Shown one piece after another: positions 22,141-59,194 of a stretch of 64,000 bases of DNA. This stretch comes from an uncultured Candidatus Saccharibacteria bacterium (GTDB taxonomy: Bacteria; Patescibacteriota; UBA1384; JAGGWG01; CAZAJM01). The position numbers were made by a program, and so were the translations under genes. The notes beneath the pieces were generated by a model. That model was not told the origin of the DNA and made no database searches. It saw nothing but the letters and a program-made list of their open reading frames with translations. Position 1 is the first letter of the stretch. Each line of letters opens with the position of its first letter. The stretch lies in assembly GCA_964485625.1 (NCBI GenBank), contig CAZAJM010000003.1, positions 6,349 through 70,348 on the forward strand, given 5' to 3'.

Positions 22141-22626
22141 ATGAATAATCAAAGAGGACAAAGAAGAAGAGAGAGTAAGTATGACGAAGAGATTATTTCA
22201 ATAGATAGAATCTCTAGGATGACTGCTGGTGGTAGGCGGATGAGGTTTAGATGCGCTATCTGTATTGGAGATCGAAAGGGTAAAGTTGGCATCGGTAGCG
22301 CAAAATCAGATGATATATCCAAAGCAATTAATAAGGCAAAAAAACAAGCTGAGAAAAATATGCTCAAGGTAAACATTGTAGAAGGTACAGTCCCTCATCA
22401 AATAGAAACTAAATTTTCAGGTGCTCATATCTTGTTAAAGCCTGCCGCTACTGGCACAGGTGTTATTGCTGGTGGTGTGGTTAGAAAAGTGCTAGAGTTA
22501 GCCGGAATTGAGAATATACTGAGTAAGTCTTTTGGCTCTCAAAATAAAATCAATAACCTAAAAGCTACTTACCAAGCCCTGGAGAAGTTAAGCCAGGTTA
22601 AAATAGTAGAAAAAAGCGATAAATAA
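22141..22626 (+). CDS. rpsE: 30S ribosomal protein S5
   Basis: S5 dsRBD with C-terminal domain. It is directly followed by L15, with no L30 gene between them. Confidence 0.92.
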   Translation: MNNQRGQRRRESKYDEEIISIDRISRMTAGGRRMRFRCAICIGDRKGKVGIGSAKSDDISKAINKAKKQAEKNMLKVNIVEGTVPHQIETKFSGAHILLKPAATGTGVIAGGVVRKVLELAGIENILSKSFGSQNKINNLKATYQALEKLSQVKIVEKSDK

Positions 22627-22630
22627 AAAG

Positions 22631-23044
22631 ATGAAAACAGACCAATTAAAGAAATTAATAAAAAATAGACGCCGGTCGGGCAGAGGTATATCGTCTGGTA
22701 AAGGCAAGACTGCTGGTAGAGGCACAAAAGGACAAAAATCAAGGTCTGGATACAATATCCCGACCGGTTTTGAGGGTGGTCAAAATCCAATCAAGAAAAG
22801 AATTCCGAAATTAGGTGGTTTTAACAGAGAGTCAAGACCTGCCCAAGTCGTTAATTTAGGTGAGATCTATAAACATTTCAAAACAGGTGCCACTGTCTCT
22901 CCTAGCACTCTTGAAAAGAAAGGTCTTATTAGAGATAAGGAGCAACCAGTTAAGGTTCTAGCAATGGGGTCTGATAAGAGCAAAAAGCTCAAATTTTCCA
23001 GTGATCTGTCTTTCTCTAAGTCTGCTAAAGAAGCCAGCAAGTAA
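22631..23044 (+). CDS. rplO: 50S ribosomal protein L15
   Basis: G/R-rich N-terminus, L15 family. Confidence 0.9.
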   Translation: MKTDQLKKLIKNRRRSGRGISSGKGKTAGRGTKGQKSRSGYNIPTGFEGGQNPIKKRIPKLGGFNRESRPAQVVNLGEIYKHFKTGATVSPSTLEKKGLIRDKEQPVKVLAMGSDKSKKLKFSSDLSFSKSAKEASK

Positions 23045-45082: not shown

Positions 45083-47299
45083 TCAATATCTTGCCAGTTG
45101 ATACTGATCTCTAATAATTTCTGCCAAGGTTGTCTCACCACCATACCTTATTCTTTTGAGTTTCTTAGGTTTAACATCGATGACTTTTCTCTGTGATTTA
45201 GGCAGTTGTCTTCTAATCTTTCTTAGTTGTTCTCTGGTCTTAATATAGTGACGATACTGTTTCTCAATCACCCAGATTGTTCCGCTATTAGTGGCACTGA
45301 TCAGGCTACCATTTTTATGTACTAATATTCTTCTGTTTGGAATATCTCTAAAAAGGTCAGGATCGACCTCTTTTATGTCTCTCCAACGGTATCCTCTCAT
45401 TCTGAAAACTTTTGGTGAAAGTACTGGGTAATTTCTACAACCGAACTTATTTGAACGATAGACCGCTACAGTCCCACCACCTTTAGGTCTAATCTTATCG
45501 TTGTAATTTAATAATTTATCAGCTTTCTGACAAGTAAGTTCTTCTGGAGTTAACTCATTTTGTGGTGGATCATCATCTTCTGGCTCTTCCTCAGGCACGT
45601 CTGTTACTGTAATAATAATTGTTTCATCATCAGTATCATCACCATCACTTACTATGAAATTAATACTATAATCTCCAGATTGCTCATTGGTTGGCGTCCA
45701 AGAAAACAATCCTGTCTCGCTATTCAAATTAGCTCCATCGGGTAATCCAGATGATGAAAAAGTTAGTAAGTCTTCGATATCATCATCACTGGCGTTTAAG
45801 CTAAATTCTAATAGAGCCTCTTCTTCTATTGATTTATCACCTACAGCAGTTAAAACTGGTGCTGAGTTTAATATCGTGGTATCAACTTGATCGCTTGGAC
45901 CATTTAATATTCCATCGGTTGGAGTTGCTTCGCAACGCCAAAGGTCGTCCTTAGAAGTATTGTCTTTATTTAGGACAGGACCGGCAAGCTCAGGCTGCAA
46001 AACATCATTCTTGTACCAATTGTATAGATAAGTAACTAAGCCGCCATCAGGATCATTGGAGCCAGAAGCTTCGCAGTATAAATCATCAGTAGTATTAGGC
46101 AATTCTGGTGTTATTACTACACTGGTAGGCTGAGTAGGTGGGCTATTTTCACCTCCATCTCCAATATCAATCGAGGTGTACATGGTGCTACCATCTTCAG
46201 GTATATTTACTGGAGTATCATTATCAGTAAAAATATTATCTTGATAATTAATTTCAAAACCATCTAAGGTGCCCGAGTTTCCGTCACTAATTAAATCCTC
46301 TGAATAAAAATACCAGTTATTATCAGTATCATTGGGAGGCATGTAGTCTAATTGATCTGTTAAATCATGTGACGCTGATATGTTAGCATTGTCAGCACCA
46401 GCCATGTTATATTTTAGGGACTGCCATGTTGGGTCAGAGGAATTACCAACACCTAGGCCGTATCTAATCTGATTTTTAACGGGGTGAGTTATGTCAATAT
46501 TTGCCCAGACCTGAGGGACATAACCAATTTTATCCGTATCGACCCATGCTTCAATCATATAGTTTTCAACAAAATCATAGGATAGCCACGAATAACCATC
46601 ACCGCTCCAACTGCTGCCCCATGAGTTAACAAATTTAAAAGCTCCTGTCTGAGGGTTTCCTTCAGAGTCAGTATAACTGCGATCATCATCATAACCAACA
46701 ATTGTAACTGCATGGCCACCCCTAAGACTACCTTCGGGATAAGCATGTACATCATTGCCACCAGTCGCTGATAGTTGATCATCATATGATGGTACTCCGG
46801 CAACTAATACTCCACCTGCATCAAGACGTTGTTTAAGGTTGTTAATATCAGTCATAAACGCTTCATGATAAATAATATCATTACTTTCACTACGATAGTA
46901 CATTGCATTCTGCCATTGTGCTTGGTTTGGCCAGGTACGATAATCAACATTACCCATTAATTCATAGGTTGGGGTGCCGGTTTCCTTAAGCATATTAAAG
47001 GATCCGCCTATAGACATGCCTTGGCTTGAATCACCTCCGTTAGCTTGATTCCAGATGAATGTAGGGCTGAACTGATGGTCAGTAGTATCTACCGACCAGC
47101 CGTGTTCCTGTTTTTCAACAAAAGTTTTGTAATAATAGCCGGTTGCCCACCCAACACAAGAGCCGTAACTACCCTGACTTCTTACAGGTGGCATATCAGC
47201 GGAGAGATCAACTGAGGCAGCATTAACATTACCGGCAATAAAGGTCAGAAAAACCGTAATAGTAATTACTAGTGTATATTTCAAAATATTCTTATTCAT
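45083..47299 (-). CDS. secreted papain-like (C1A) cysteine peptidase with putative Ig (He_PIG/cadherin-like) domain and basic C-terminal domain
   Basis: Signal peptide. Catalytic Cys block QGSYGSCVGWATGYY, His block GGHAVTIVGYDD and Asn/Trp block NSWGSSWSGDGY. A middle ...TGLFSWTPT... Ig-like repeat. The C-terminal roughly 170 aa are K/R-rich. The start overlaps the upstream gene in ATGAATAA. Confidence 0.75.
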   Translation of the reverse strand: MNKNILKYTLVITITVFLTFIAGNVNAASVDLSADMPPVRSQGSYGSCVGWATGYYYKTFVEKQEHGWSVDTTDHQFSPTFIWNQANGGDSSQGMSIGGSFNMLKETGTPTYELMGNVDYRTWPNQAQWQNAMYYRSESNDIIYHEAFMTDINNLKQRLDAGGVLVAGVPSYDDQLSATGGNDVHAYPEGSLRGGHAVTIVGYDDDRSYTDSEGNPQTGAFKFVNSWGSSWSGDGYSWLSYDFVENYMIEAWVDTDKIGYVPQVWANIDITHPVKNQIRYGLGVGNSSDPTWQSLKYNMAGADNANISASHDLTDQLDYMPPNDTDNNWYFYSEDLISDGNSGTLDGFEINYQDNIFTDNDTPVNIPEDGSTMYTSIDIGDGGENSPPTQPTSVVITPELPNTTDDLYCEASGSNDPDGGLVTYLYNWYKNDVLQPELAGPVLNKDNTSKDDLWRCEATPTDGILNGPSDQVDTTILNSAPVLTAVGDKSIEEEALLEFSLNASDDDIEDLLTFSSSGLPDGANLNSETGLFSWTPTNEQSGDYSINFIVSDGDDTDDETIIITVTDVPEEEPEDDDPPQNELTPEELTCQKADKLLNYNDKIRPKGGGTVAVYRSNKFGCRNYPVLSPKVFRMRGYRWRDIKEVDPDLFRDIPNRRILVHKNGSLISATNSGTIWVIEKQYRHYIKTREQLRKIRRQLPKSQRKVIDVKPKKLKRIRYGGETTLAEIIRDQYQLARY

Positions 47300-48149
47300 C
47301 TTCGATCTCCAGTCCAAGTGGATACTCTATCCTCACTCCCTGAGAAGCTAAGTAAAAATCCTCTAACCAAGTATTATTTTTATTATCTTTTACTGCTACC
47401 TCTATTGAAGGCGGAGTATCAGTTGATACTTTTTCGGATATGTCCAAATAATAGCTTATAGTTTTAGTTTTTTGACCCTGGTGGTCAATAGAAGAAATAG
47501 TTCTCTTATTTCCATCTACAAAAAATACTAAGTCATAGCGATCCGAAGCCTCGATTACTAAATCCCTTGCTTTTGCGTTGCCAATATTTTTTAGTTTCAA
47601 GTCTAACCTGATTCTTTCGCCAGGATTTGCGATTTGATCTTGGTTACCTAAAGTGCCGCTTTGACTGCCGTCAACAACTCTAATATTTTGTAGTTTAATG
47701 ATTGGAGCACCAACGACATTTAACTGCATATCAACTACAAGAGGTTCTTCTAATTGTTGAGAATTTAAATAAAGATAGGTTTGATGTTTACCTACCGGAA
47801 GTTTTTTAGCATTAATAACTAATTCGATCTTACTGCTATCTCCTGGACTTATAGTTCTTTGACTGGGCAAAATATTCAACCAATTAACCACAGCTTCTTT
47901 ATTATCTGCAGTCTTTTTGATATTAAATTTGAAATCGAGCTCAGATTGATTTAAGATTGACAGGTAAGTAGAACTATGGCTACCTTGGTTTGCTTTAACT
48001 TTGATCTCATTATTATAGGAGATTTCTTCTGGATTTATGACCTCTTGAGCAGAAATATCCAATTTAATATTGGTGCCATCTAAGAGAATAGTAATAATGA
48101 CCAACACAATAAAGCTAACAATTACTAAATACCAAACCTTTTTGCGCAT
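47292..48149 (-). CDS. hypothetical membrane-anchored extracellular protein (operon partner of the protease)
   Basis: N-terminal TM followed by 260 aa of predicted beta-rich ectodomain. Translationally coupled to the protease gene. Confidence 0.5.
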   Translation of the reverse strand: MRKKVWYLVIVSFIVLVIITILLDGTNIKLDISAQEVINPEEISYNNEIKVKANQGSHSSTYLSILNQSELDFKFNIKKTADNKEAVVNWLNILPSQRTISPGDSSKIELVINAKKLPVGKHQTYLYLNSQQLEEPLVVDMQLNVVGAPIIKLQNIRVVDGSQSGTLGNQDQIANPGERIRLDLKLKNIGNAKARDLVIEASDRYDLVFFVDGNKRTISSIDHQGQKTKTISYYLDISEKVSTDTPPSIEVAVKDNKNNTWLEDFYLASQGVRIEYPLGLEIEDE

Positions 48150-49828: not shown

Positions 49829-51091
49829 TTATATTTTAGTGATGATCCCACCGGCCACTGTGTCGCTTCTTTCTAAAACAAATCTACCAAGCTCAGGAAC
49901 CTCATTGAAGTCATCTACCACTATCTCATCGGCTGTCTCAATCTCTACACTGGCAACTTGGCGGTTCTCAATAATCTCCCCACCTTCATTAACAACTTCT
50001 AGAGTAGAGGAGTCAATTATTCTGTCAAACTTAGTAACCTCGGCCATCACAGATTGACTGGCAAGCTTAAATAGAAGACGCTCACCTTTTTTCATCGGCT
50101 CTTTATCCATCCAGAAAAGGTTGGCTTGGATTGTATTGGTAGATTTTGGCCTATCTTTACTATCGCTGATCACGTTACCTCTATCAACAAAAACCTTATC
50201 TTTACTAACTATGCCGATACTATCACCCGCGATAGCTCCATCTATCTCTTCTTTGTACTTAAGCACCTCATTGACTTCTGTCTCTTCTCCGCTAGGCAAG
50301 ATTACCATCTTATCACCTTTCTTTATTACTCCAGAAGAGATTCTACCGGCAATGATGCGCTTATCCCACTTATATACATCTTGAACAGGCAACCTCAAAG
50401 GCTTATTTAACATCGGTTCTTCTATCTCAAACTGGTCTAAAGCTTCCAATACCGTTGGGCCAGAGTACCAGTCGGTTTTTTTAGATTTAACAGCAACGTT
50501 CTCTCCCTCTTTAGCACTAATTGGCACTACTTGTTTTGGCTCTATCTCAATTTTATCTAAAAATTTAGCCAGCTCTTTTTTAACGGCTTTAAATCTACTC
50601 TCCTTGTAATCTACTAGATCCATCTTATTGACTACTACAATTACTTGGTCTAAGCCAAGCATAGAGAGGATATAGGCATGCCGCCTGGTCTGTTCTTGCA
50701 AGCCTTCCTCGGCGTCAACTATTAAGATAGCCGCTTCAGCTTGAGATGCACCCGTAATCATGTTTTTTACAAACTCAACATGACCAGGAGCATCGATAAT
50801 AGTATACTCGCGCTTCTTAGTTCTAAAGAAGGTCTGAGCAGTATCGATAGTAATTCCTTGATCCCTCTCTTCTTGTAAGTGGTCCATGACGTAGCCAAAC
50901 TCCATCTCTTTACCTAAGGCATCACAGATCGACTTAATCTCTTCATACTTCCCTTCAGGAAGAGAATCGGTATCATAGAATAGTCGGCCAATTAAGGTGG
51001 ACTTACCATGATCGACATGACCAGAAAGAACCAGTTTTAGATTTTCATCAACTTTATTTGCTTCCTCAGTTTTAATTTTCTCTTTATTCAT
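49829..51091 (-). CDS. cysN: sulfate adenylyltransferase subunit 1-like GTPase (CysN/NodQ family)
   Basis: [14 protein letters not shown], ...[35 protein letters not shown]... and NKMD align closely to CysN. Confidence 0.8.
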
Positions 51092-51113: not shown

Positions 51114-53156
51114 CTACATATACCCAAGAGCTCGAAGGTTCTGCATCGCATTGGCCTCTTCTTTGTCTTGAGCTCGACCAGCTCTTTCAGCAGTATGTGA
51201 GGTCTCTACCTCTTCAATTATCTCATCGATATTCTTGGCCTTAGATTCAACCGGGGTAGTACATGGCTCACAGCCCAAAGACCGGAAACGCTTACCCTTA
51301 CTATCGGCAAAGTAGAGGGGATTTACCGGCAGGTCTTCTCGTTTAGTATATTTCCAAATATCAACCTCCGTCCAATGAAGTATTGGGTGAACTCTTAAGT
51401 GCTGCTCGGTCTCTTTTTGAGATTTATACTGATCCCAAAGCTCCGGAGCTTGGTTTTTATAGTCCCATCGAAAATCCTTGTTTCTGGGAGAATTATGGAC
51501 AGCAATTCCTTCAGCAAGGTATGAATGATGGTCATCTACCTTAAGGTCATAGACCATGCCTTCATAATTTATCTCATGAATATCTCTGATTGGAACCCAA
51601 AAACCACCTGTTCTGGCTTTACCAATATTGGCATAATCATTCCCAGAATTAATTTCATCAATTTCCTGAATTAGTTTTTTGAATCGATTTGTGTAATTAA
51701 CATTACTAGTAATCCCAAATAAATTGTAAAAACGTTCTTTACTATTTCCAACAACTCTAACCTGGTAACGTCCATCTTTTTGCTTGGAAACTGAGGTCAT
51801 TATACCAAGCCTTAGTAGTGCTAAGTTAATTTGCTTAGATAGCTGACTGGAAAATGTTGTGTATGTTTCTTTATGTCCATCTCCAAGCCAACACCCCTTA
51901 ATCAATTGAATTAAATTAACATTTGACAATTTAGTGTAAAAATATGGGAGCTTTTTATTACGTGCCCCTTTCCCACATAACTTAGAGAAGAGGAGCATTA
52001 ACGTCTTATTACTAAAAAGAACGTTATAACAATTGCCTCTATCTCTAATTTTCGCTTTGATGCCAAAGTGCTTACTAACAATATCATTAACATCATTAGC
52101 AAAGGATTTTTCATTTTTACCAAAAGCGAACTCAAATTGATTACTAGAATAATTACTACTTCCTTCGGCAATATATAGCCCTAGGAGCCTCATGATTTCC
52201 TTGTTGACAGGCAAGGATCTTCTAATATCTGGAGAATTACTATGGGAAGATTTCCAACTAATTTTCTTTTTATTAACAAGCAAGCCTTTATGCTTACCAA
52301 TGACATCACATATATCAATAAACTTGGGACTATTGTGGCCATCTTGAGGTTTCTTTGCTAATTTTGGAATGAATAAAAAATCTCCCTTTTCTAAAGTTGA
52401 CGCAGAAGTCCATACCATTCTTCTTCTACCGGCAATTGGCAAATCAATATCACGAGTTACACCATCAAATCCCTTAGAAGTTACAGTTACAACTTTCTTA
52501 ACAGGAGCTTTCACTTTTGCCAAAACCGCATGATTAGGAGTCATAGATAGCTCCTTGCCATAAGGAGTTTTGACTTTCAATAACTTCCCTTTATGTTTTC
52601 TTGATGATATATCTTGAACTTCTTTCAAAGAACCTAAATGCGTATAAACCTTATCGCCTCTCCTAATTTTTTCTATAGGCTTAGTTTTTTCTCCATAAAT
52701 TGTAGTCCCCCTTGGAAAACAAAAGGTTCTCTCCTTCGCGCGAACTCCATGCTCATCTCGCCTAATTCCAAGGAGTAGAGCATCAAACTTATGCTCATCG
52801 ATTGTCTGCTTTAGAGCCTCTGTCTTTCTCATACCACAGCACTTAAGCTTGTCTTTAGGCCCGATTCCTTGCTTATCAGCCTCGTCGTTTTTTGAGACTA
52901 TTAGATCCAGATCCCATTTCTTAACGCATTCATCTCGAAAGTCATACATTTCTTGAAAATGCTTACCCGTATCGATATAGATGACGGGAAAAGGCACCTT
53001 ACCAAAGAAAGCTTTCTTTACCAACCAGAGCATAGTGGTCGAGTCTTTGCCTATCGACCAGAGCATGCCCATCTTCTTGTAATTAGCAAATGCCTCTCTG
53101 ATAATGTAGATCGATTTGCTCTCTAATTTGTCCAAGTGAGTTAACTTCTTCTTCAT
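51114..53156 (-). CDS. cysD: sulfate adenylyltransferase subunit 2 (CysD, PAPS-reductase-like) interrupted by an in-frame intein
   Basis: N-extein ...LWSIGKDSTTMLWL...GIRRDEHGVRAKERTF and C-extein SPRNKDFRWDYKNQAPELW...RSLGCEPCT... align collinearly with CysD. 410 intervening residues have intein features. Confidence 0.85.
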   Translation of the reverse strand: MKKKLTHLDKLESKSIYIIREAFANYKKMGMLWSIGKDSTTMLWLVKKAFFGKVPFPVIYIDTGKHFQEMYDFRDECVKKWDLDLIVSKNDEADKQGIGPKDKLKCCGMRKTEALKQTIDEHKFDALLLGIRRDEHGVRAKERTFCFPRGTTIYGEKTKPIEKIRRGDKVYTHLGSLKEVQDISSRKHKGKLLKVKTPYGKELSMTPNHAVLAKVKAPVKKVVTVTSKGFDGVTRDIDLPIAGRRRMVWTSASTLEKGDFLFIPKLAKKPQDGHNSPKFIDICDVIGKHKGLLVNKKKISWKSSHSNSPDIRRSLPVNKEIMRLLGLYIAEGSSNYSSNQFEFAFGKNEKSFANDVNDIVSKHFGIKAKIRDRGNCYNVLFSNKTLMLLFSKLCGKGARNKKLPYFYTKLSNVNLIQLIKGCWLGDGHKETYTTFSSQLSKQINLALLRLGIMTSVSKQKDGRYQVRVVGNSKERFYNLFGITSNVNYTNRFKKLIQEIDEINSGNDYANIGKARTGGFWVPIRDIHEINYEGMVYDLKVDDHHSYLAEGIAVHNSPRNKDFRWDYKNQAPELWDQYKSQKETEQHLRVHPILHWTEVDIWKYTKREDLPVNPLYFADSKGKRFRSLGCEPCTTPVESKAKNIDEIIEEVETSHTAERAGRAQDKEEANAMQNLRALGYM
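51492..52721 (-). mobile_element. intein (Hint domain plus LAGLIDADG homing endonuclease) within cysD
   Basis: Starts with Cys (CFPRGTTIYG), block B TPNHAVL, LAGLIDADG-like LLGLYIAEGS and LIKGCWLGDGH. Ends ...AVHN followed by +1 Ser. The spliced junction RAKERTF|SPRNKDFRWD matches the E. coli CysD [17 protein letters not shown] region. Confidence 0.85.
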
Positions 53157-53175
53157 TATTAAATATATTAATTAT

Positions 53176-53388
53176 TTACAAATAGCCAAGTTCCTTTAGT
53201 CTTTTCTTAACGCTCTCAATCTCACCTTTAGTCAGTTTAATATCCTGATCAATTGGGCCACTACCGGCAATATCTCGTAAGACAAAGACGATAAACTCCG
53301 TAACAGAAGAGAAACCGGTCTCTTCGATCTGATCCTTAAGAGAATTATATAACTGCTTGGGAATCTTAATTGTCGCTTTATCACTCAT
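53176..53388 (-). CDS. ribbon-helix-helix (CopG/NikR-like) DNA-binding protein
   Basis: 70 aa. ...TIKIPKQLYNSLKDQIEETGFSSVTEFIVFVLRDI... fits an RHH beta-alpha-alpha pattern. Lies directly upstream of cysD. Confidence 0.45.
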   Translation of the reverse strand: MSDKATIKIPKQLYNSLKDQIEETGFSSVTEFIVFVLRDIAGSGPIDQDIKLTKGEIESVKKRLKELGYL

Positions 53389-53490: not shown

Positions 53491-54291
53491 CTAGACGGTT
53501 ATAGTTTGTTGATTTAAGATAGATTCTATCATGGCTTCACAGACTTTAGTAATATCATTAATTTGATATCTAGATGCATTTCTCTTGATAGTTCTAATTT
53601 GATCCAAGTCAACAGGATCTCTCTCAGTGAGTTCAATAAGTTTCTCAAAAACACTTCTGGCTTGTTGATCATTCAACCGATCTGTATTACTTACTAAAAT
53701 CAGATAATCTTCAAACTCGTCTGCTAACATCCACATTATTTCAAAGATAACTCCCGAAAGATTGTCTTGGTATCCAAAATCTGTTTCAAAAAACTTAGCC
53801 GTTTCAAAGTCACGACAATACTTAGCAATTCTTTGAGTAATGTCTAATTGATCAGGACAAAGAGCAATCATCCGCTGTAATTCTATATAATAACAAGCTA
53901 ACATTTTCATTGTTTCCTCATCTCTACCAGCCTCTCTGAGAGTCCAATTCAAATTCCTTACCCAATACCAAAGATTAGTCCGGTTTCTCATTATTCCATA
54001 AACCTCTTCTCTTAATTCTTCTGTCATCTCTTCCATACTATTACAGAAAACTACCATCTCTCTTAAAACATCAAAAGGAATTCTTCTTCTTATTTTATTA
54101 GGCAACTTATACCAAGAGCTAACTGCGGCTTGAGCCATATTATCATTATGGTGAGGAATTACACTTTGGAAAAAATCTTTAATGACAAAATCTTCCCAAT
54201 TCGCCTTACCAAATTTTAACCTCCACCATCTTTTAACATCATCTATAAAATCCGACCATCCCCCAAAGAGAAGTTTGCTCTTCATGATCAT
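53491..54291 (-). CDS. hypothetical protein (Trp-rich, predicted all-alpha)
   Basis: 266 aa. No recognisable motif. Confidence 0.45.
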   Translation of the reverse strand: MIMKSKLLFGGWSDFIDDVKRWWRLKFGKANWEDFVIKDFFQSVIPHHNDNMAQAAVSSWYKLPNKIRRRIPFDVLREMVVFCNSMEEMTEELREEVYGIMRNRTNLWYWVRNLNWTLREAGRDEETMKMLACYYIELQRMIALCPDQLDITQRIAKYCRDFETAKFFETDFGYQDNLSGVIFEIMWMLADEFEDYLILVSNTDRLNDQQARSVFEKLIELTERDPVDLDQIRTIKRNASRYQINDITKVCEAMIESILNQQTITV

Positions 54292-55477: not shown

Positions 55478-56053
55478 TTAGTTAATTAATATTTCTCCCT
55501 CTCCCTCTTTCTCTATCCCGGCAGCATTGGCCTCATCTGTATCTATATGCATACTCTTATCATACTCCTCATTAATCCTTACTAGAACGTTCTTAAAAAC
55601 TAGACCTCGTTTGCCTTTCACCTCCACCTCAACCTTACTCTGGTTTTCAATACCAATCTCTTCAGCTTGCTCAGGGTTTATATGAATATGGCGATGAGGA
55701 ATAATAGCGGCCCTTACTTCAACCTTACCTTCCGAACCAACTATTGTGATCTTACCCGGTCTGACATTTTCGTCGTTTACAGATTTCTCAATTGGTGCCT
55801 CAATTCCTAGCTTGATGGCATCGGTCTTCGAGATCTCTACTTGAGTCTTTTCCCGAGTTGGACCAACAACTGCTACATTCTCAATAACTGAGCTAGGACC
55901 TTTAATAGTCAATCTTTCCTCACAAACATACTGGCCCGGTTGATCGATCATTCTTTTTTTAGTTAGACTCTGATTTTTACCCAAAACCTTTTCTAGATCA
56001 ACTTTTGAGAGATGGATGTGTCTGGCAGATGTTTTAATGCTAATTTTATCCAT
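55478..56053 (-). CDS. pduL: PduL-type phosphate acyltransferase (phosphotransacetylase, PTAC family)
   Basis: Two repeats with ARHIHLS / PHRHIHIN and HIDTDEANAAG, typical of PduL. Confidence 0.7.
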   Translation of the reverse strand: MDKISIKTSARHIHLSKVDLEKVLGKNQSLTKKRMIDQPGQYVCEERLTIKGPSSVIENVAVVGPTREKTQVEISKTDAIKLGIEAPIEKSVNDENVRPGKITIVGSEGKVEVRAAIIPHRHIHINPEQAEEIGIENQSKVEVEVKGKRGLVFKNVLVRINEEYDKSMHIDTDEANAAGIEKEGEGEILIN

Positions 56054-57605
56054 GATGATTATTATTATTTATATAGAAGTGTTCATCTTTTATTTCACTA
56101 GGCATATCCAAGCCAAGCTCATTGATAATGATATTAGCCACTCCGGCAATACTGCCTCCTGACTTAAGGGCTTTTTCAGAATGATTAACTAAAATAAAAG
56201 GAACTTGATTGTTAGTATGTTCGGTATGGGGCTGACCAGTCTTTCTATCTATCATCTCCTCGGCATTGCCATGATCGGCAGTAACTAATATTGTTTCATT
56301 CTCGCCAATATTTTCCAATATCCGACCAAGTTGTTTATCGACAAATTCAACTGCCTTAATAACGGCATCTATCTTACCGGTATGTCCAACCATATCCGGA
56401 TTGGCAAAGTTAGCTAAGGTAAAACGATATTTGCCAGATTTTTCTGCCTTAAGTAGCTCATCACAGACCTTTTTGGCATTCATCTCCGGTTTTTGGTCGT
56501 AGGTCTCTACTTTGGGGGAGGGTATTAAAACTCTATCCTCATTCTTATAGGGCTCCTCAATCATACCATTAAAAAAGTAAGTTACGTGAGCATATTTTTC
56601 AGTCTCTGCTATGTGAAACTGTCTCATCCCAGCCTGGTCAATTAGTTTAGCCAATGGATTTCCAATTTTTTTAGTTGGGAAAGCCGAGCGGTATGGTAGA
56701 TGCTGATCGTAAGTTTTGTAAGGGACCATAGAGACAAAGAAGAGCTCCTTTAAAAACTTCTCTCGATCGTATTTCAAATCAGGATCGATAAAGAAACTTG
56801 TTAGTTGTCTGGCTCTATCTGAACGGAAGTTAAGAAAGACTACACTATCACCATCTTCAACCACTCCCTGCTGATTGATTACTGTTGGCCTAATATACTG
56901 ATCTGTCTTACCGCCCCGATAACTTTTGCCAATTGCTTTTAAAGCGCTATTACTTTTGTTTCCTCTGCCAGAGACCATCGCCTGGTAAGCCAAGTTGGTC
57001 CGCTCTAGGTTATTGTCCCTATCCATGGCATAGTATCTACCAGAAACTGAGGCGACTTTGACATTTTCTTTCATGCCCAAATCCTCAATTTTTTCGATTA
57101 ATTTAGAGACGAAGGTCTGAGCCGAACTGGGGGGCGAGTCTCTGCCATCAGTTATTAAGTGTAAATAAACATTACTAACATCCTCTTTTTTGAGCATCTC
57201 CAGTAGGGCATAGAAATGATTAATATGAGAGTGAATCCCACCATCGGAAAGCAAGCCAATAATCTGAAACTTGGATTTCTCTTCTTCTTGATGCTTAATA
57301 GCATTTAAAATCTGCTCATTACTAAAAAAACTTCTATCCTCAACTGCACCATTGATCCGAGAAACATCTTGGGGAATAATCCTGCCGGCCCCCAATGTCA
57401 TATGACCAACTTCAGAGTTACCCATCTCATCTCCAGGCAGACCAACAAACTGGCCACTTGCCTCAAGGGTGGTGTGGGGATATTTTCTCCAAGCCCAATC
57501 AAAGTTAGGTGTTCTAGCCTCACTAATAGCGTTACCACCCCAGGCCGGAGAGTAGCCCCAACCATCTAGAATTACTAATTTTACACAGCGTTCACTTTTA
57601 TTCAT
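56046..57605 (-). CDS. gpmI: 2,3-bisphosphoglycerate-independent phosphoglycerate mutase, paralog 1
   Basis: GNSEVGH (Ser nucleophile), GGIHSH, NPDMVGHTG and TADHGNAE motifs. Confidence 0.85.
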   Translation of the reverse strand: MNKSERCVKLVILDGWGYSPAWGGNAISEARTPNFDWAWRKYPHTTLEASGQFVGLPGDEMGNSEVGHMTLGAGRIIPQDVSRINGAVEDRSFFSNEQILNAIKHQEEEKSKFQIIGLLSDGGIHSHINHFYALLEMLKKEDVSNVYLHLITDGRDSPPSSAQTFVSKLIEKIEDLGMKENVKVASVSGRYYAMDRDNNLERTNLAYQAMVSGRGNKSNSALKAIGKSYRGGKTDQYIRPTVINQQGVVEDGDSVVFLNFRSDRARQLTSFFIDPDLKYDREKFLKELFFVSMVPYKTYDQHLPYRSAFPTKKIGNPLAKLIDQAGMRQFHIAETEKYAHVTYFFNGMIEEPYKNEDRVLIPSPKVETYDQKPEMNAKKVCDELLKAEKSGKYRFTLANFANPDMVGHTGKIDAVIKAVEFVDKQLGRILENIGENETILVTADHGNAEEMIDRKTGQPHTEHTNNQVPFILVNHSEKALKSGGSIAGVANIIINELGLDMPSEIKDEHFYINNNNHHG

Positions 57606-59194
57606 AGTTTAACTAAACCGTTTTTTAAATCTTCACCGGCCATATTTGGGTCTGAGTCAATCTCAAGATTAACTAATATTGTACTACTAACATCGGCTAA
57701 AATACCACTAGGCGAGAGCTGGCTAATAGATTGCCACAGACTATCACTATCGAGATTCTTCTGTGGTTGCTGAAAGCCATCCACCCAAAAGAAAGGAACC
57801 GGATTAACAGTATGCTCCTTATCTGGCTTGTTACTTGCTAAATTAATCATCTGCTCACAGTTGCCATGATCGGCCGTAACGAAGGAGAGGTAATCTGCCT
57901 TGCCGGCAACTAAAAGTAATTTACCTAAATAGTAATCAACAGCCTCTACTGCCTCTTTGGTTGCCTCGAAGCTACCTGTATGGCCGACCATATCGGGATT
58001 AGCTATATTCAAGAGAATGAATTCCGGGCTCTGCTTAATGCCATCGACTACCGCTTGAAAAAGAATCTCCAAACTCATCTCAGGTTTTTGGTCGTATGAT
58101 TCAACATCAGGAGAGGAGATAATACTGTCAACTTCTTTGGCATATTTTTTATCTAAGCCACCGCCAAAAAAGTAGGTGACATGGGCCCTCTTCTCACTCT
58201 CTGCTAGATGAATTTGGGAAAGCCCCCTCTTATCAATAACTGACGGCAGATTATCTTCTACTTTTGGCGGATCAAAAACCGTTCTAATATCAATATCCCA
58301 ATCTTCCTCATAAGGCGTCATGGTAGCAATATCAACTTTAGGGAACTTGGCCCTAACAAACTCTTTTAAACTTGGATCGGCTAGAGCTCTGGTCATCTGT
58401 CTGGCTCGATCAGCTCTGAAATTAAAGATTATTACCCCATCACCTTCTTTAACAAACTGATCATTATCACTTAGATCGACAATTGAAGGAGAGAGGTTCT
58501 CGTCGTTTTTGCCTTGACCATATCTTGCCTCAAACAGATCTTCTGGGCTAGAAAAGTAATCCTCTTTATTACTATTACCACCGATAACAGTCTCATAAAA
58601 TCTCTTGGTTCTTTCCCAGTTATTATTCCTGTCCATGGCAATCTTTCTACCGGTAATTGTAGAGACCTTGCCTACTCCAATCTCAGCTATCTTCTTATTA
58701 AGCTTAGCAAGAAAATCAACCCCCGATTTAGGAGGCGTATCCCTGCCATCACTTATCATATGGATATATACTCGATCAATATTTTTGCTCTTAGCTAGCT
58801 TAAGCAAAGCATAAAGATGATTAATGTGAGAGTGAATCCCGCCATTTGAGACCAAACCGATTAGATGCAGAGCTTTACTGCTACTAACAACACCATCGAT
58901 TAGTTCATTTAATATCTTGTTCTTGTAGAAACTGCCATCTCTAATAGACTGATCTATCTTGGGCAAGTTCTGCCAAAGGACCTGACCTGTTCCTAAATTA
59001 AAATGGCCCACCTCCGAGTTACCAACCTCGCCCCAACTTAGACCGACCTCTTCACCAGAAGCCGATAGGGTAGTAAAAGGATGGTTGGCAATTAAGCTAT
59101 CTAGATTAGGCGTATTGGCCGAAAGAACAGGATTTTGCTCCCGGTTATAGTTCAAGCCAAATCCGTCTAGTATGACTAAAAAAGTCTTATCCAT
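57602..59194 (-). CDS. 2,3-bisphosphoglycerate-independent phosphoglycerate mutase, paralog 2 (divergent)
   Basis: Same motif set (GNSEVGH, GGIHSHINHLYALL, NPDMVGHTG, TADHGNCE) but only roughly 40-45% identical to paralog 1 by eye. Confidence 0.8.
   Translation of the reverse strand: MDKTFLVILDGFGLNYNREQNPVLSANTPNLDSLIANHPFTTLSASGEEVGLSWGEVGNSEVGHFNLGTGQVLWQNLPKIDQSIRDGSFYKNKILNELIDGVVSSSKALHLIGLVSNGGIHSHINHLYALLKLAKSKNIDRVYIHMISDGRDTPPKSGVDFLAKLNKKIAEIGVGKVSTITGRKIAMDRNNNWERTKRFYETVIGGNSNKEDYFSSPEDLFEARYGQGKNDENLSPSIVDLSDNDQFVKEGDGVIIFNFRADRARQMTRALADPSLKEFVRAKFPKVDIATMTPYEEDWDIDIRTVFDPPKVEDNLPSVIDKRGLSQIHLAESEKRAHVTYFFGGGLDKKYAKEVDSIISSPDVESYDQKPEMSLEILFQAVVDGIKQSPEFILLNIANPDMVGHTGSFEATKEAVEAVDYYLGKLLLVAGKADYLSFVTADHGNCEQMINLASNKPDKEHTVNPVPFFWVDGFQQPQKNLDSDSLWQSISQLSPSGILADVSSTILVNLEIDSDPNMAGEDLKNGLVKL

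Follow-up and report, generated by a model that had tools for sequence, protein, structure and literature searches.

The DNA analysed here, hereafter the window, is a 64,000-nucleotide stretch of contig CAZAJM010000003.1 from an uncultured Candidatus Saccharibacteria bacterium (assembly GCA_964485625.1, positions 6,349 to 70,348, forward strand). Its cysD gene, for the sulfate adenylyltransferase subunit CysD, is very probably interrupted in frame by a full-length class-1 intein that carries a double-motif LAGLIDADG homing endonuclease. An initial annotation, made from the DNA letters without database searches, had proposed a canonical class-1 intein with a homing endonuclease in CysD, and nothing found here overturns that proposal. 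The 680-residue cysD open reading frame (ORF) with an insert at residues 146-555 was recovered with exactly matching coordinates, and its frame is intact over all 2043 bases, with no internal stop. Translating window positions 51492..52721 on the minus strand, which correspond to precursor residues 146-555, yields a 410-residue in-frame insert that starts with Cys at precursor residue 146 (CFPRG...) and ends in ...IAVHN before a serine of the host (SPRNK), so that residues 554-556 read His-Asn-Ser. The insert boundaries coincide with codon boundaries at the canonical C...HN^S junction (a caret marks an insertion point throughout). Excising the insert in silico joins ...RAKERTF to SPRNKDFRWDYKNQAPELW, and the corresponding spliced-junction DNA reads GCGAAGGAGAGAACCTTT^TCTCCCAGAAACAAGGAT. 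The insert has a G+C fraction of 0.343 compared with 0.437 for the exteins, a dip that is also seen in the composition profile. The predicted masses are 78.1 kDa for the precursor, 31.8 kDa for spliced CysD and 46.4 kDa for the intein. The parts of the gene are as follows; L081 and L085 are syntenic loci with an uninterrupted cysD.

51114..53156 (-): cysD precursor ORF, 680 residues, 78.1 kDa; N-extein, intein and C-extein, with PAPS_reduct split around the intein domains
52722..53156 (-): N-extein, CysD residues 1-145; holds the PP-loop SIGKDS, has the C-terminal end ...RRDEHGVRAKERTF and aligns to L081/L085 until 52719/52723
51492..52721 (-): predicted intein, 410 residues, 46.4 kDa, pI 9.9; class-1 splicing domain with inserted LAGLIDADG endonuclease, missing from L081 and L085
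51114..51491 (-): C-extein, CysD residues 146-270 and the stop codon; starts with Ser+1 (SPRNKDFRW...) and aligns to L081/L085 from 51482/51491

The insert matches intein and LAGLIDADG endonuclease models

Pfam places PAPS_reduct on the precursor in two stretches (E-value 2.3e-45). In the insert it finds Intein_splicing (PF14890; 49.6 bits against a cut-off of 35.8), LAGLIDADG_3 (PF14528; 44.8 bits against 22.5, in two matched stretches) and, more weakly, Hint_2. With the excised insert alone, both TIGR01445 intein_Nterm (26.9 against 24.5) and TIGR01443 intein_Cterm (27.3 against 15.6) score above their cut-offs. A search against the sequences of solved structures returned PI-PkoII (E-value 4.8e-11), V-ATPase inteins including TliVMA, and the C-terminus of the Pyrococcus (Pho) CDC21 intein. 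An AlphaFold model of the intein built on a 13-sequence alignment reached a predicted local distance difference test score (pLDDT) of 86.4 and a predicted template modelling score (pTM) of 0.85. Foldseek ranked endonuclease-containing inteins at the top of its PDB matches, with TliVMA (7qsu, 1.6e-19) followed by PI-PkoII (2cw7), PhoVMA, PI-SceI (1vde) and PI-PfuI (1dq3), the E-values for solved inteins ranging from 1e-19 to 1e-12. The central domain of the model resembles I-DmoI (template modelling score normalised to the target 0.63-0.73) as well as the endonuclease domains of PI-SceI and PI-PfuI. The comparison with Hint/intein and LAGLIDADG models suggested by the initial annotation therefore passes curated cut-offs, and the predicted fold agrees. 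When a hidden Markov model of the same-site inteins described below was run over the six-frame translation of the window in search of a second intein, it matched cysD alone.

The host protein is a short-form CysD interrupted in a conserved motif

The spliced product of 270 residues scores 360.5 bits with the NCBIfam CysD model NF003587, a subfamily-level model with a cut-off of 195, and falls under the cut-offs of the proteobacterial-type models TIGR02039 (284.8 against 396.6) and NF009214 (an equivalog model, 293 against 413). It aligns to CysD of Pseudomonas syringae (PDB 1ZUN) with an E-value of 5e-72, with rakerTFSpRNkdfrwdyknq of the window in register. The exteins are collinear with CysD and the junction is gapless, which bears out the earlier claim that excision restores a conserved CysD segment; 1ZUN has the counterpart of the E. 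coli segment cited there. About 33 residues of 1ZUN (chain residues about 233-264, before the SLGC motif near the C-terminus) are missing from the window protein. Because it scores below the proteobacterial-type cut-offs and lacks these residues, the window CysD can be assigned to a short form of about 265-270 residues, whose named members are mostly DPANN archaea and MSBL1. The closest named relatives of the window CysD are likewise DPANN and MSBL1 archaea, yet the window is bacterial (see below).

The insertion lies between Phe145 and Ser146 of mature CysD, in a conserved RRDE..RAKERxF^SPR motif that is common to CysD and CysH reductases. We take this motif to be the one called the 'Arg-loop', a name for which a literature search gave no support. 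The site had been described as part of a conserved nucleotide-binding region; the conserved motif stands, but the site is RRDE..RAKER..^S and not the ATP-binding PP-loop SIGKDS, which occupies residues 34-39 (S34, G36, K37 and D38 being nearly invariant in the CysD alignment). With the RRDE..RAKER motif region divided by the insert, the precursor is expected to stay inactive until it has been spliced.

Splicing and endonuclease residues are invariant among diverged same-site inteins

The hallmarks named by the initial annotation, a Cys start, a TxxH block B, two LAGLIDADG blocks and a His-Asn end followed by Ser, could all be located in the insert:

52692..52721 (-): splicing block A, CFPRGTTIYG; first nucleophile Cys1; C1 and F2 do not vary across 13 same-site inteins; TIGR01445, 26.9 against 24.5
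52530..52541 (-): splicing block B, TPNH (TxxH), intein residues 61-64; N63 and H64 invariant, T61 nearly so
52158..52187 (-): LAGLIDADG motif 1, LLGLYIAEGS, intein residues 179-188, with acidic Glu186; G181, Y183, A185, E186, G187 and S188 invariant
51945..51968 (-): endonuclease block D region, GARNKKLP; K256 and P259 invariant, aligned to ...AENKRIP of PI-PkoII
51873..51905 (-): LAGLIDADG motif 2, LIKGCWLGDGH, intein residues 273-283, with acidic Asp281; G276, C277, W278, G280, D281 and G282 invariant
51492..51554 (-): splicing blocks F and G, VYDLKVDDHHSYLAEG-IAVHN; His409 and the terminal Asn410 invariant; TIGR01443, 27.3 against 15.6; aligned to the C-terminus of 6rpq

The block F/G segment VYDLKVDDHHSYLAEGIAVHN closes with His409-Asn410, and Ser+1 belongs to the conserved SPR motif of the host itself and occurs in every aligned CysD sequence. 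In the alignment of 13 same-site inteins, which are 41-62% identical to the window intein, C1, H64, E186, K256, P259, D281, H409 and N410 are all invariant. Since the catalytic residues do not vary despite this divergence, their conservation argues for selection on the splicing and nuclease functions alike.

Two other classes were considered and rejected. Class-3 inteins lack the position-1 nucleophile and use an internal Trp-Cys-Thr triad; in the window intein Cys1 is present and invariant. Bacterial intein-like (BIL) domains resemble the window intein in their Hint-type fold and in occurring in bacterial proteins. They have no endonuclease, usually have no +1 nucleophile, and are found in variable regions of non-conserved proteins, whereas the window insert has both an endonuclease and Ser+1 and its site is a conserved motif.

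Syntenic loci carry intein-free cysD alleles

Searching with the spliced sequence identified intein-free CysD proteins of 269-270 residues, P0068 and P0069, with extein identities of 94% and 92%, respectively. The empty alleles lie in syntenic loci (L081-L085), and the contigs encoding P0069 share their gene order with the window for about 22 kb. This order comprises a short-chain dehydrogenase, GPI, enolase, two cofactor-independent phosphoglycerate mutases (iPGM), PTAC, acetate kinase, a 70-residue ORF, cysD, cysN, an ORF of about 240 residues, mraW and, farther away, leuS. DNA identity between the window and L081 is 68-80%. In blastn comparisons the alignment of the window with L081 ends at 52719 and restarts at 51482, and that with L085 ends at 52723 and restarts at 51491, so that the breakpoints equal the intein boundaries within a few bases. 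The junction peptide IRRDEHGVRAKERTF^SPRNKDFRW is identical in all three alleles (window, L081 and L085). The cysD intein is thus a clean presence/absence polymorphism of the kind that homing produces. The survey for empty and occupied alleles at the same site that had been proposed earlier turned up both, the empties with 92-94% extein identity and about 21 other occupied alleles.

The same alleles bear on whether the insert is a dead, non-splicing insertion that leaves cysD effectively a pseudogene, which we regard as very improbable. Nothing specific speaks in favour of it. The exteins still share 92-94% identity with uninterrupted alleles, the 2043-base frame is unbroken, the splicing residues are all present and conserved, and cysN and the other partners of the cassette are intact.

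Inteins occupy six sites in CysD homologs

Alignment of CysD homologs placed inteins at six sites, all of them in conserved motifs:

Site a: GKD^S, in the PP-loop
Site b: ID^TG
Site c: EC^C
Site d: KERxF^S, the site used in the window
Site e: WTE^(C)D(V/I)W
Site f: R(F/Y)R^SLGC

Homologs P0022-P0033 and P0037 are the carriers at the five sites other than d. Insertions were mapped in roughly 33 intein-bearing CysD proteins, and each of these has a single intein. The six sites were invaded independently, because the site-d intein is nearer to inteins of other hosts (31-33% identity) than to inteins at other CysD sites (21-27%). The same figures led us to reject the idea that one intein lineage had moved from site to site within CysD. 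The earlier expectation that inteins would be at best rare in this protein family holds as to rarity; the window intein is not unique, however, with six CysD sites occupied.

Inteins at the window's own site (KERxF^C...VHN^SPR) were recovered in 21 further clusters, made at 90% identity, in the first homolog search. They are 383-411 residues long and 39-62% identical to the window intein, and none is a mini-intein. Sharing its insertion point and motifs, they are alleles of the same intein. The named carriers are mostly labelled archaeal, whereas the window is bacterial: they include the MSBL1 archaea SCGC-AAA259I09 and SCGC-AAA259E19 (P0013, P0017), an uncultured archaeon (L002/P0008) and a Micrarchaeota metagenome-assembled genome (L003/P0012). 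A further carrier, L001, is a short contig binned as Planctomycetia. Database labels of these proteins are automatic only ('hypothetical protein', 'DOD-type homing endonuclease domain-containing protein').

Extein and intein identities to the window do not track each other (80 and 62% for P0001, 60 and 59% for P0002, 71 and 41% for P0011). Most intein-bearing alleles have as their nearest extein neighbour one that is intein-free or has its intein at another site; P0011 (site d) and P0024 (site a), for example, have exteins that are 90% identical. The distribution of inteins across the CysD clade is therefore patchy.

Scanning a genome collection with the intein profile returned close relatives only at L001-L003, the other 77 loci being distant inteins in other genes. 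Among these loci, many genomes of the Candidate Phyla Radiation (CPR) in L011-L064 (Saccharibacteria, Levyibacteriota, Collierbacteria and others) have a full-length relative of the intein that is 24-29% identical over residues 1-410. When 1.84 billion representative proteins were searched with a profile, 18,959 matches at E <= 0.001 were obtained, in which the site-d CysD group, at 50% clustering, is represented by P0011 and P0021. Hosts of the next-best shorter matches (under about 900 residues) include group-1 glycosyltransferases, pyridine-nucleotide disulfide oxidoreductases and MptE-like proteins. Three giant proteins of 3308-4920 residues (P0308, P0310 and P0313) each have 7-14 separate matches to the intein profile and look like multi-intein proteins or fusions.

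The breadth of this distribution also bears on an assembly or binning artefact that would have fused an unrelated intein to cysD. Such an artefact might be suspected because the source organism is uncultured and the gene-position collection has no record of the exact precursor, but the same architecture at the same site recurs in at least 21 independent assemblies (from ENA, JGI, Logan and NCBI single-cell genomes), and the codon-exact boundaries at a canonical splice junction are likewise at odds with it. We consider its probability negligible.

Weighing an active against a decayed endonuclease

Several points weigh against a functional, homing-competent intein. Splicing and cleavage are deduced from conserved residues, and endonuclease activity decays in many inteins whose motifs are still recognisable. 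Identity to the nearest same-site intein is no more than 62%, which gives no sign of a very recent transfer, and the exact 680-residue precursor is absent from the records of the gene-position collection. With these points in mind we considered that splicing has been kept while the endonuclease is inactive, the intein being a fixed passenger that persists as its imprecise loss would destroy cysD, with homing ended. The closest same-site intein, at 62% identity beside exteins of about 80-85%, is compatible with such a long vertical residence, and it is general knowledge that many described inteins have degenerate endonucleases. We nevertheless hold this to be rather unlikely, though a possibility to be taken seriously. 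Thirteen inteins at 41-62% identity all retain E186, D281, Lys256 of block D and the glycine framework. Reduction to a mini-intein is seen in none of the 21 same-site alleles (383-411 residues), and the sporadic presence of the intein in very closely related host alleles agrees with a continuing cycle of gain and loss.

A class-1 splicing and homing pathway would account for the element

In order to rationalise the element on the molecular level, we infer splicing by the established class-1 pathway. The 78-kDa precursor would be translated as one chain, whereupon Cys1 would undergo an N-S acyl shift and the N-extein would be passed to the side chain of Ser+1 by transesterification. Cyclisation of Asn410, assisted by His409, would free the 46-kDa intein, and an O-N shift would leave a normal peptide bond in a 31.8-kDa CysD, which together with the adjacent CysN would produce adenosine 5'-phosphosulfate (APS) from sulfate and ATP. 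The freed, basic intein (pI 9.9) is probably a site-specific endonuclease acting on empty cysD alleles: it would cut intein-free cysD across the insertion point, and repair off an occupied allele would copy the intein in, completing homing.

An improbable alternative is that the intein serves as a conditional splicing switch, in which the redox or thiol state at Cys1 gates CysD maturation and with it sulfate activation. Six unrelated inteins in catalytic motifs of CysD would fit a switch, as the unspliced precursor must therefore be inactive, and redox-sensitive splicing has been documented elsewhere, for example in the mycobacterial DnaB intein (cited in PMC11022373). On the other hand, selfish inteins generally insert in conserved motifs, for which no host benefit is needed, very close relatives thrive intein-free, and the five residues before Cys1 (KERTF) hold no Cys for the disulfide trap of regulated inteins. 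Were the intein not purely selfish, thiol- or redox-sensitive switches in CysD catalytic motifs would gate the costly, ATP- and GTP-consuming activation of sulfate in reduced-genome lineages; we think this improbable too, although such a role, if true, would explain the convergence of six unrelated inteins on one small enzyme. In a weaker form of this idea, the cysD cassette and its intein may move between DPANN archaea and CPR bacteria. A class-1 intein with a homing endonuclease remains the reading that we adopt.

Genomic neighbourhood and bacterial origin of the window

The cassette members around cysD that lie outside the intein are:

49829..51091 (-): cysN, the GTPase partner subunit, directly downstream of cysD; TIGR02034, 377.4 against a cut-off of 336.1
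53176..53388 (-): conserved 70-residue ORF, directly upstream of cysD, with homologs in the same position in L081, L088, L089 and L090
49103..49813 (-): conserved 236-residue ORF, directly downstream of cysN; identity with the equivalently placed ORF is 78% in L081, 61% in L089 and 29% in L090

The cysD-cysN order is also found in L081, L089 and L090. The 70-residue ORF has no Pfam or NCBIfam match; its C-terminus (...KKRLKELGYL) resembles that of CysD (...MQNLRALGYM). In the 236-residue ORF there is an invariant SDHG...GDH motif, and its L090 homolog matches PF01663 (phosphodiesterase/alkaline-phosphatase superfamily). In the homologs P0035, P0038, P0058, P0060 and P0066, CysD forms a fusion with a PF01663 or PF00884 domain. 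A BLASTP comparison of the 236-residue ORF with the phosphodiesterase/sulfatase-like N-terminal extensions of fused CysD proteins (P0038 and similar) gave nothing significant (E-value 0.42). A scan that covered a minority of the window ORFs brought up no APS kinase.

Between cysD and the acetate kinase gene, a 266-residue ORF (53491..54291, minus strand) has no family match and no counterpart at the syntenic L081 position, which has the 70-residue ORF only; it may be a lineage-specific insertion. Farther along, between mraW and a tRNA-Ala gene, lie genes for a 744-residue protein with a papain-like protease domain and Ig-like domains (45083..47317, minus strand) and for a 285-residue Ig-like protein (47292..48149, minus strand), where L081 has encapsulated-ferritin-like and DUF5667 genes instead. 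The two iPGM paralogs (56046..57605 and 57602..59194, both minus strand) are in tandem with a 4-base overlap, and the pair is kept in L081-L084.

The window is bacterial, because bacterial equivalog models recognise its rpoC, EF-G and EF-Tu, it has MraW and a bacterial-type LeuRS, and the best named LeuRS matches are Patescibacteria at 55-57%. The syntenic L081 also has NusB, L32p and YceD. In the ribosomal protein operon (22141..23044, plus strand) L15 starts 4 bases after S5 with no L30 gene between them. A missing L30 is linked to the CPR, and the S5-L15 arrangement fits a bacterium of that group. That the closest named relatives of this bacterial CysD are archaeal hints at exchange of the cassette between domains.

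Relation to known inteins and significance

Among solved structures, PI-PkoII (2CW7), TliVMA and PhoVMA (7QSU/7QSS/7QST), PI-SceI (1VDE) and PI-PfuI (1DQ3) share with the window intein a Hint domain split by a double-motif LAGLIDADG endonuclease. The solved archaeal and yeast inteins are its best sequence and fold matches and have Cys1, TxxH, HN and a +1 nucleophile in common with it, at only about 15% identity in structural alignments. Their hosts are polymerase, V-ATPase and ribonucleotide reductase, whereas the window host is a sulfur-assimilation enzyme; the window intein also differs in having Ser as its +1 residue. The element is thus a new host gene and allele of a well-understood kind of intein, with no new mechanism, and knowledge of intein function is unchanged by it.

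A full-text literature search found no paper on an intein in CysD, ATP sulfurylase or PAPS-reductase proteins, and PMC11022373 mentions inteins for DnaB only. In the large survey PMC4760082, 61-67% of intein hosts belong to COG category L and 8-22% to category F, with replication, repair and nucleotide metabolism stressed and a bias to ATP-binding proteins; its main text makes no mention of sulfur enzymes as hosts. The window intein adds a sulfur-assimilation enzyme to hosts otherwise dominated by replication, repair and nucleotide-metabolism proteins. CysD, as an ATP-using PP-loop enzyme, fits the ATP-binding bias yet stands outside the usual functional network.

A parallel is haloarchaeal MCM, which has four intein sites (PMC10643990). 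In both proteins, conserved motifs of a single host have been invaded by distinct inteins with sporadic occupancy; in CysD, inteins of different sites resemble one another no more than they resemble inteins of other hosts. CysD differs in being a metabolic PP-loop enzyme, whereas MCM is a replisome ATPase, and in that no mapped CysD has two inteins. For annotation, an intein-bearing cysD should not be called a pseudogene or a 'hypothetical protein'. Same-site alleles are found in archaea-labelled genomes and in one CPR-like bacterium. The occupied allele of the window, two empty alleles that have the same junction peptides and DNA about 80% identical, and roughly 20 diverged same-site inteins together form a system for studying homing specificity and the cycle of gain and loss. 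With six independent sites in an enzyme of 270 residues, CysD offers a compact model for multi-intein occupancy.

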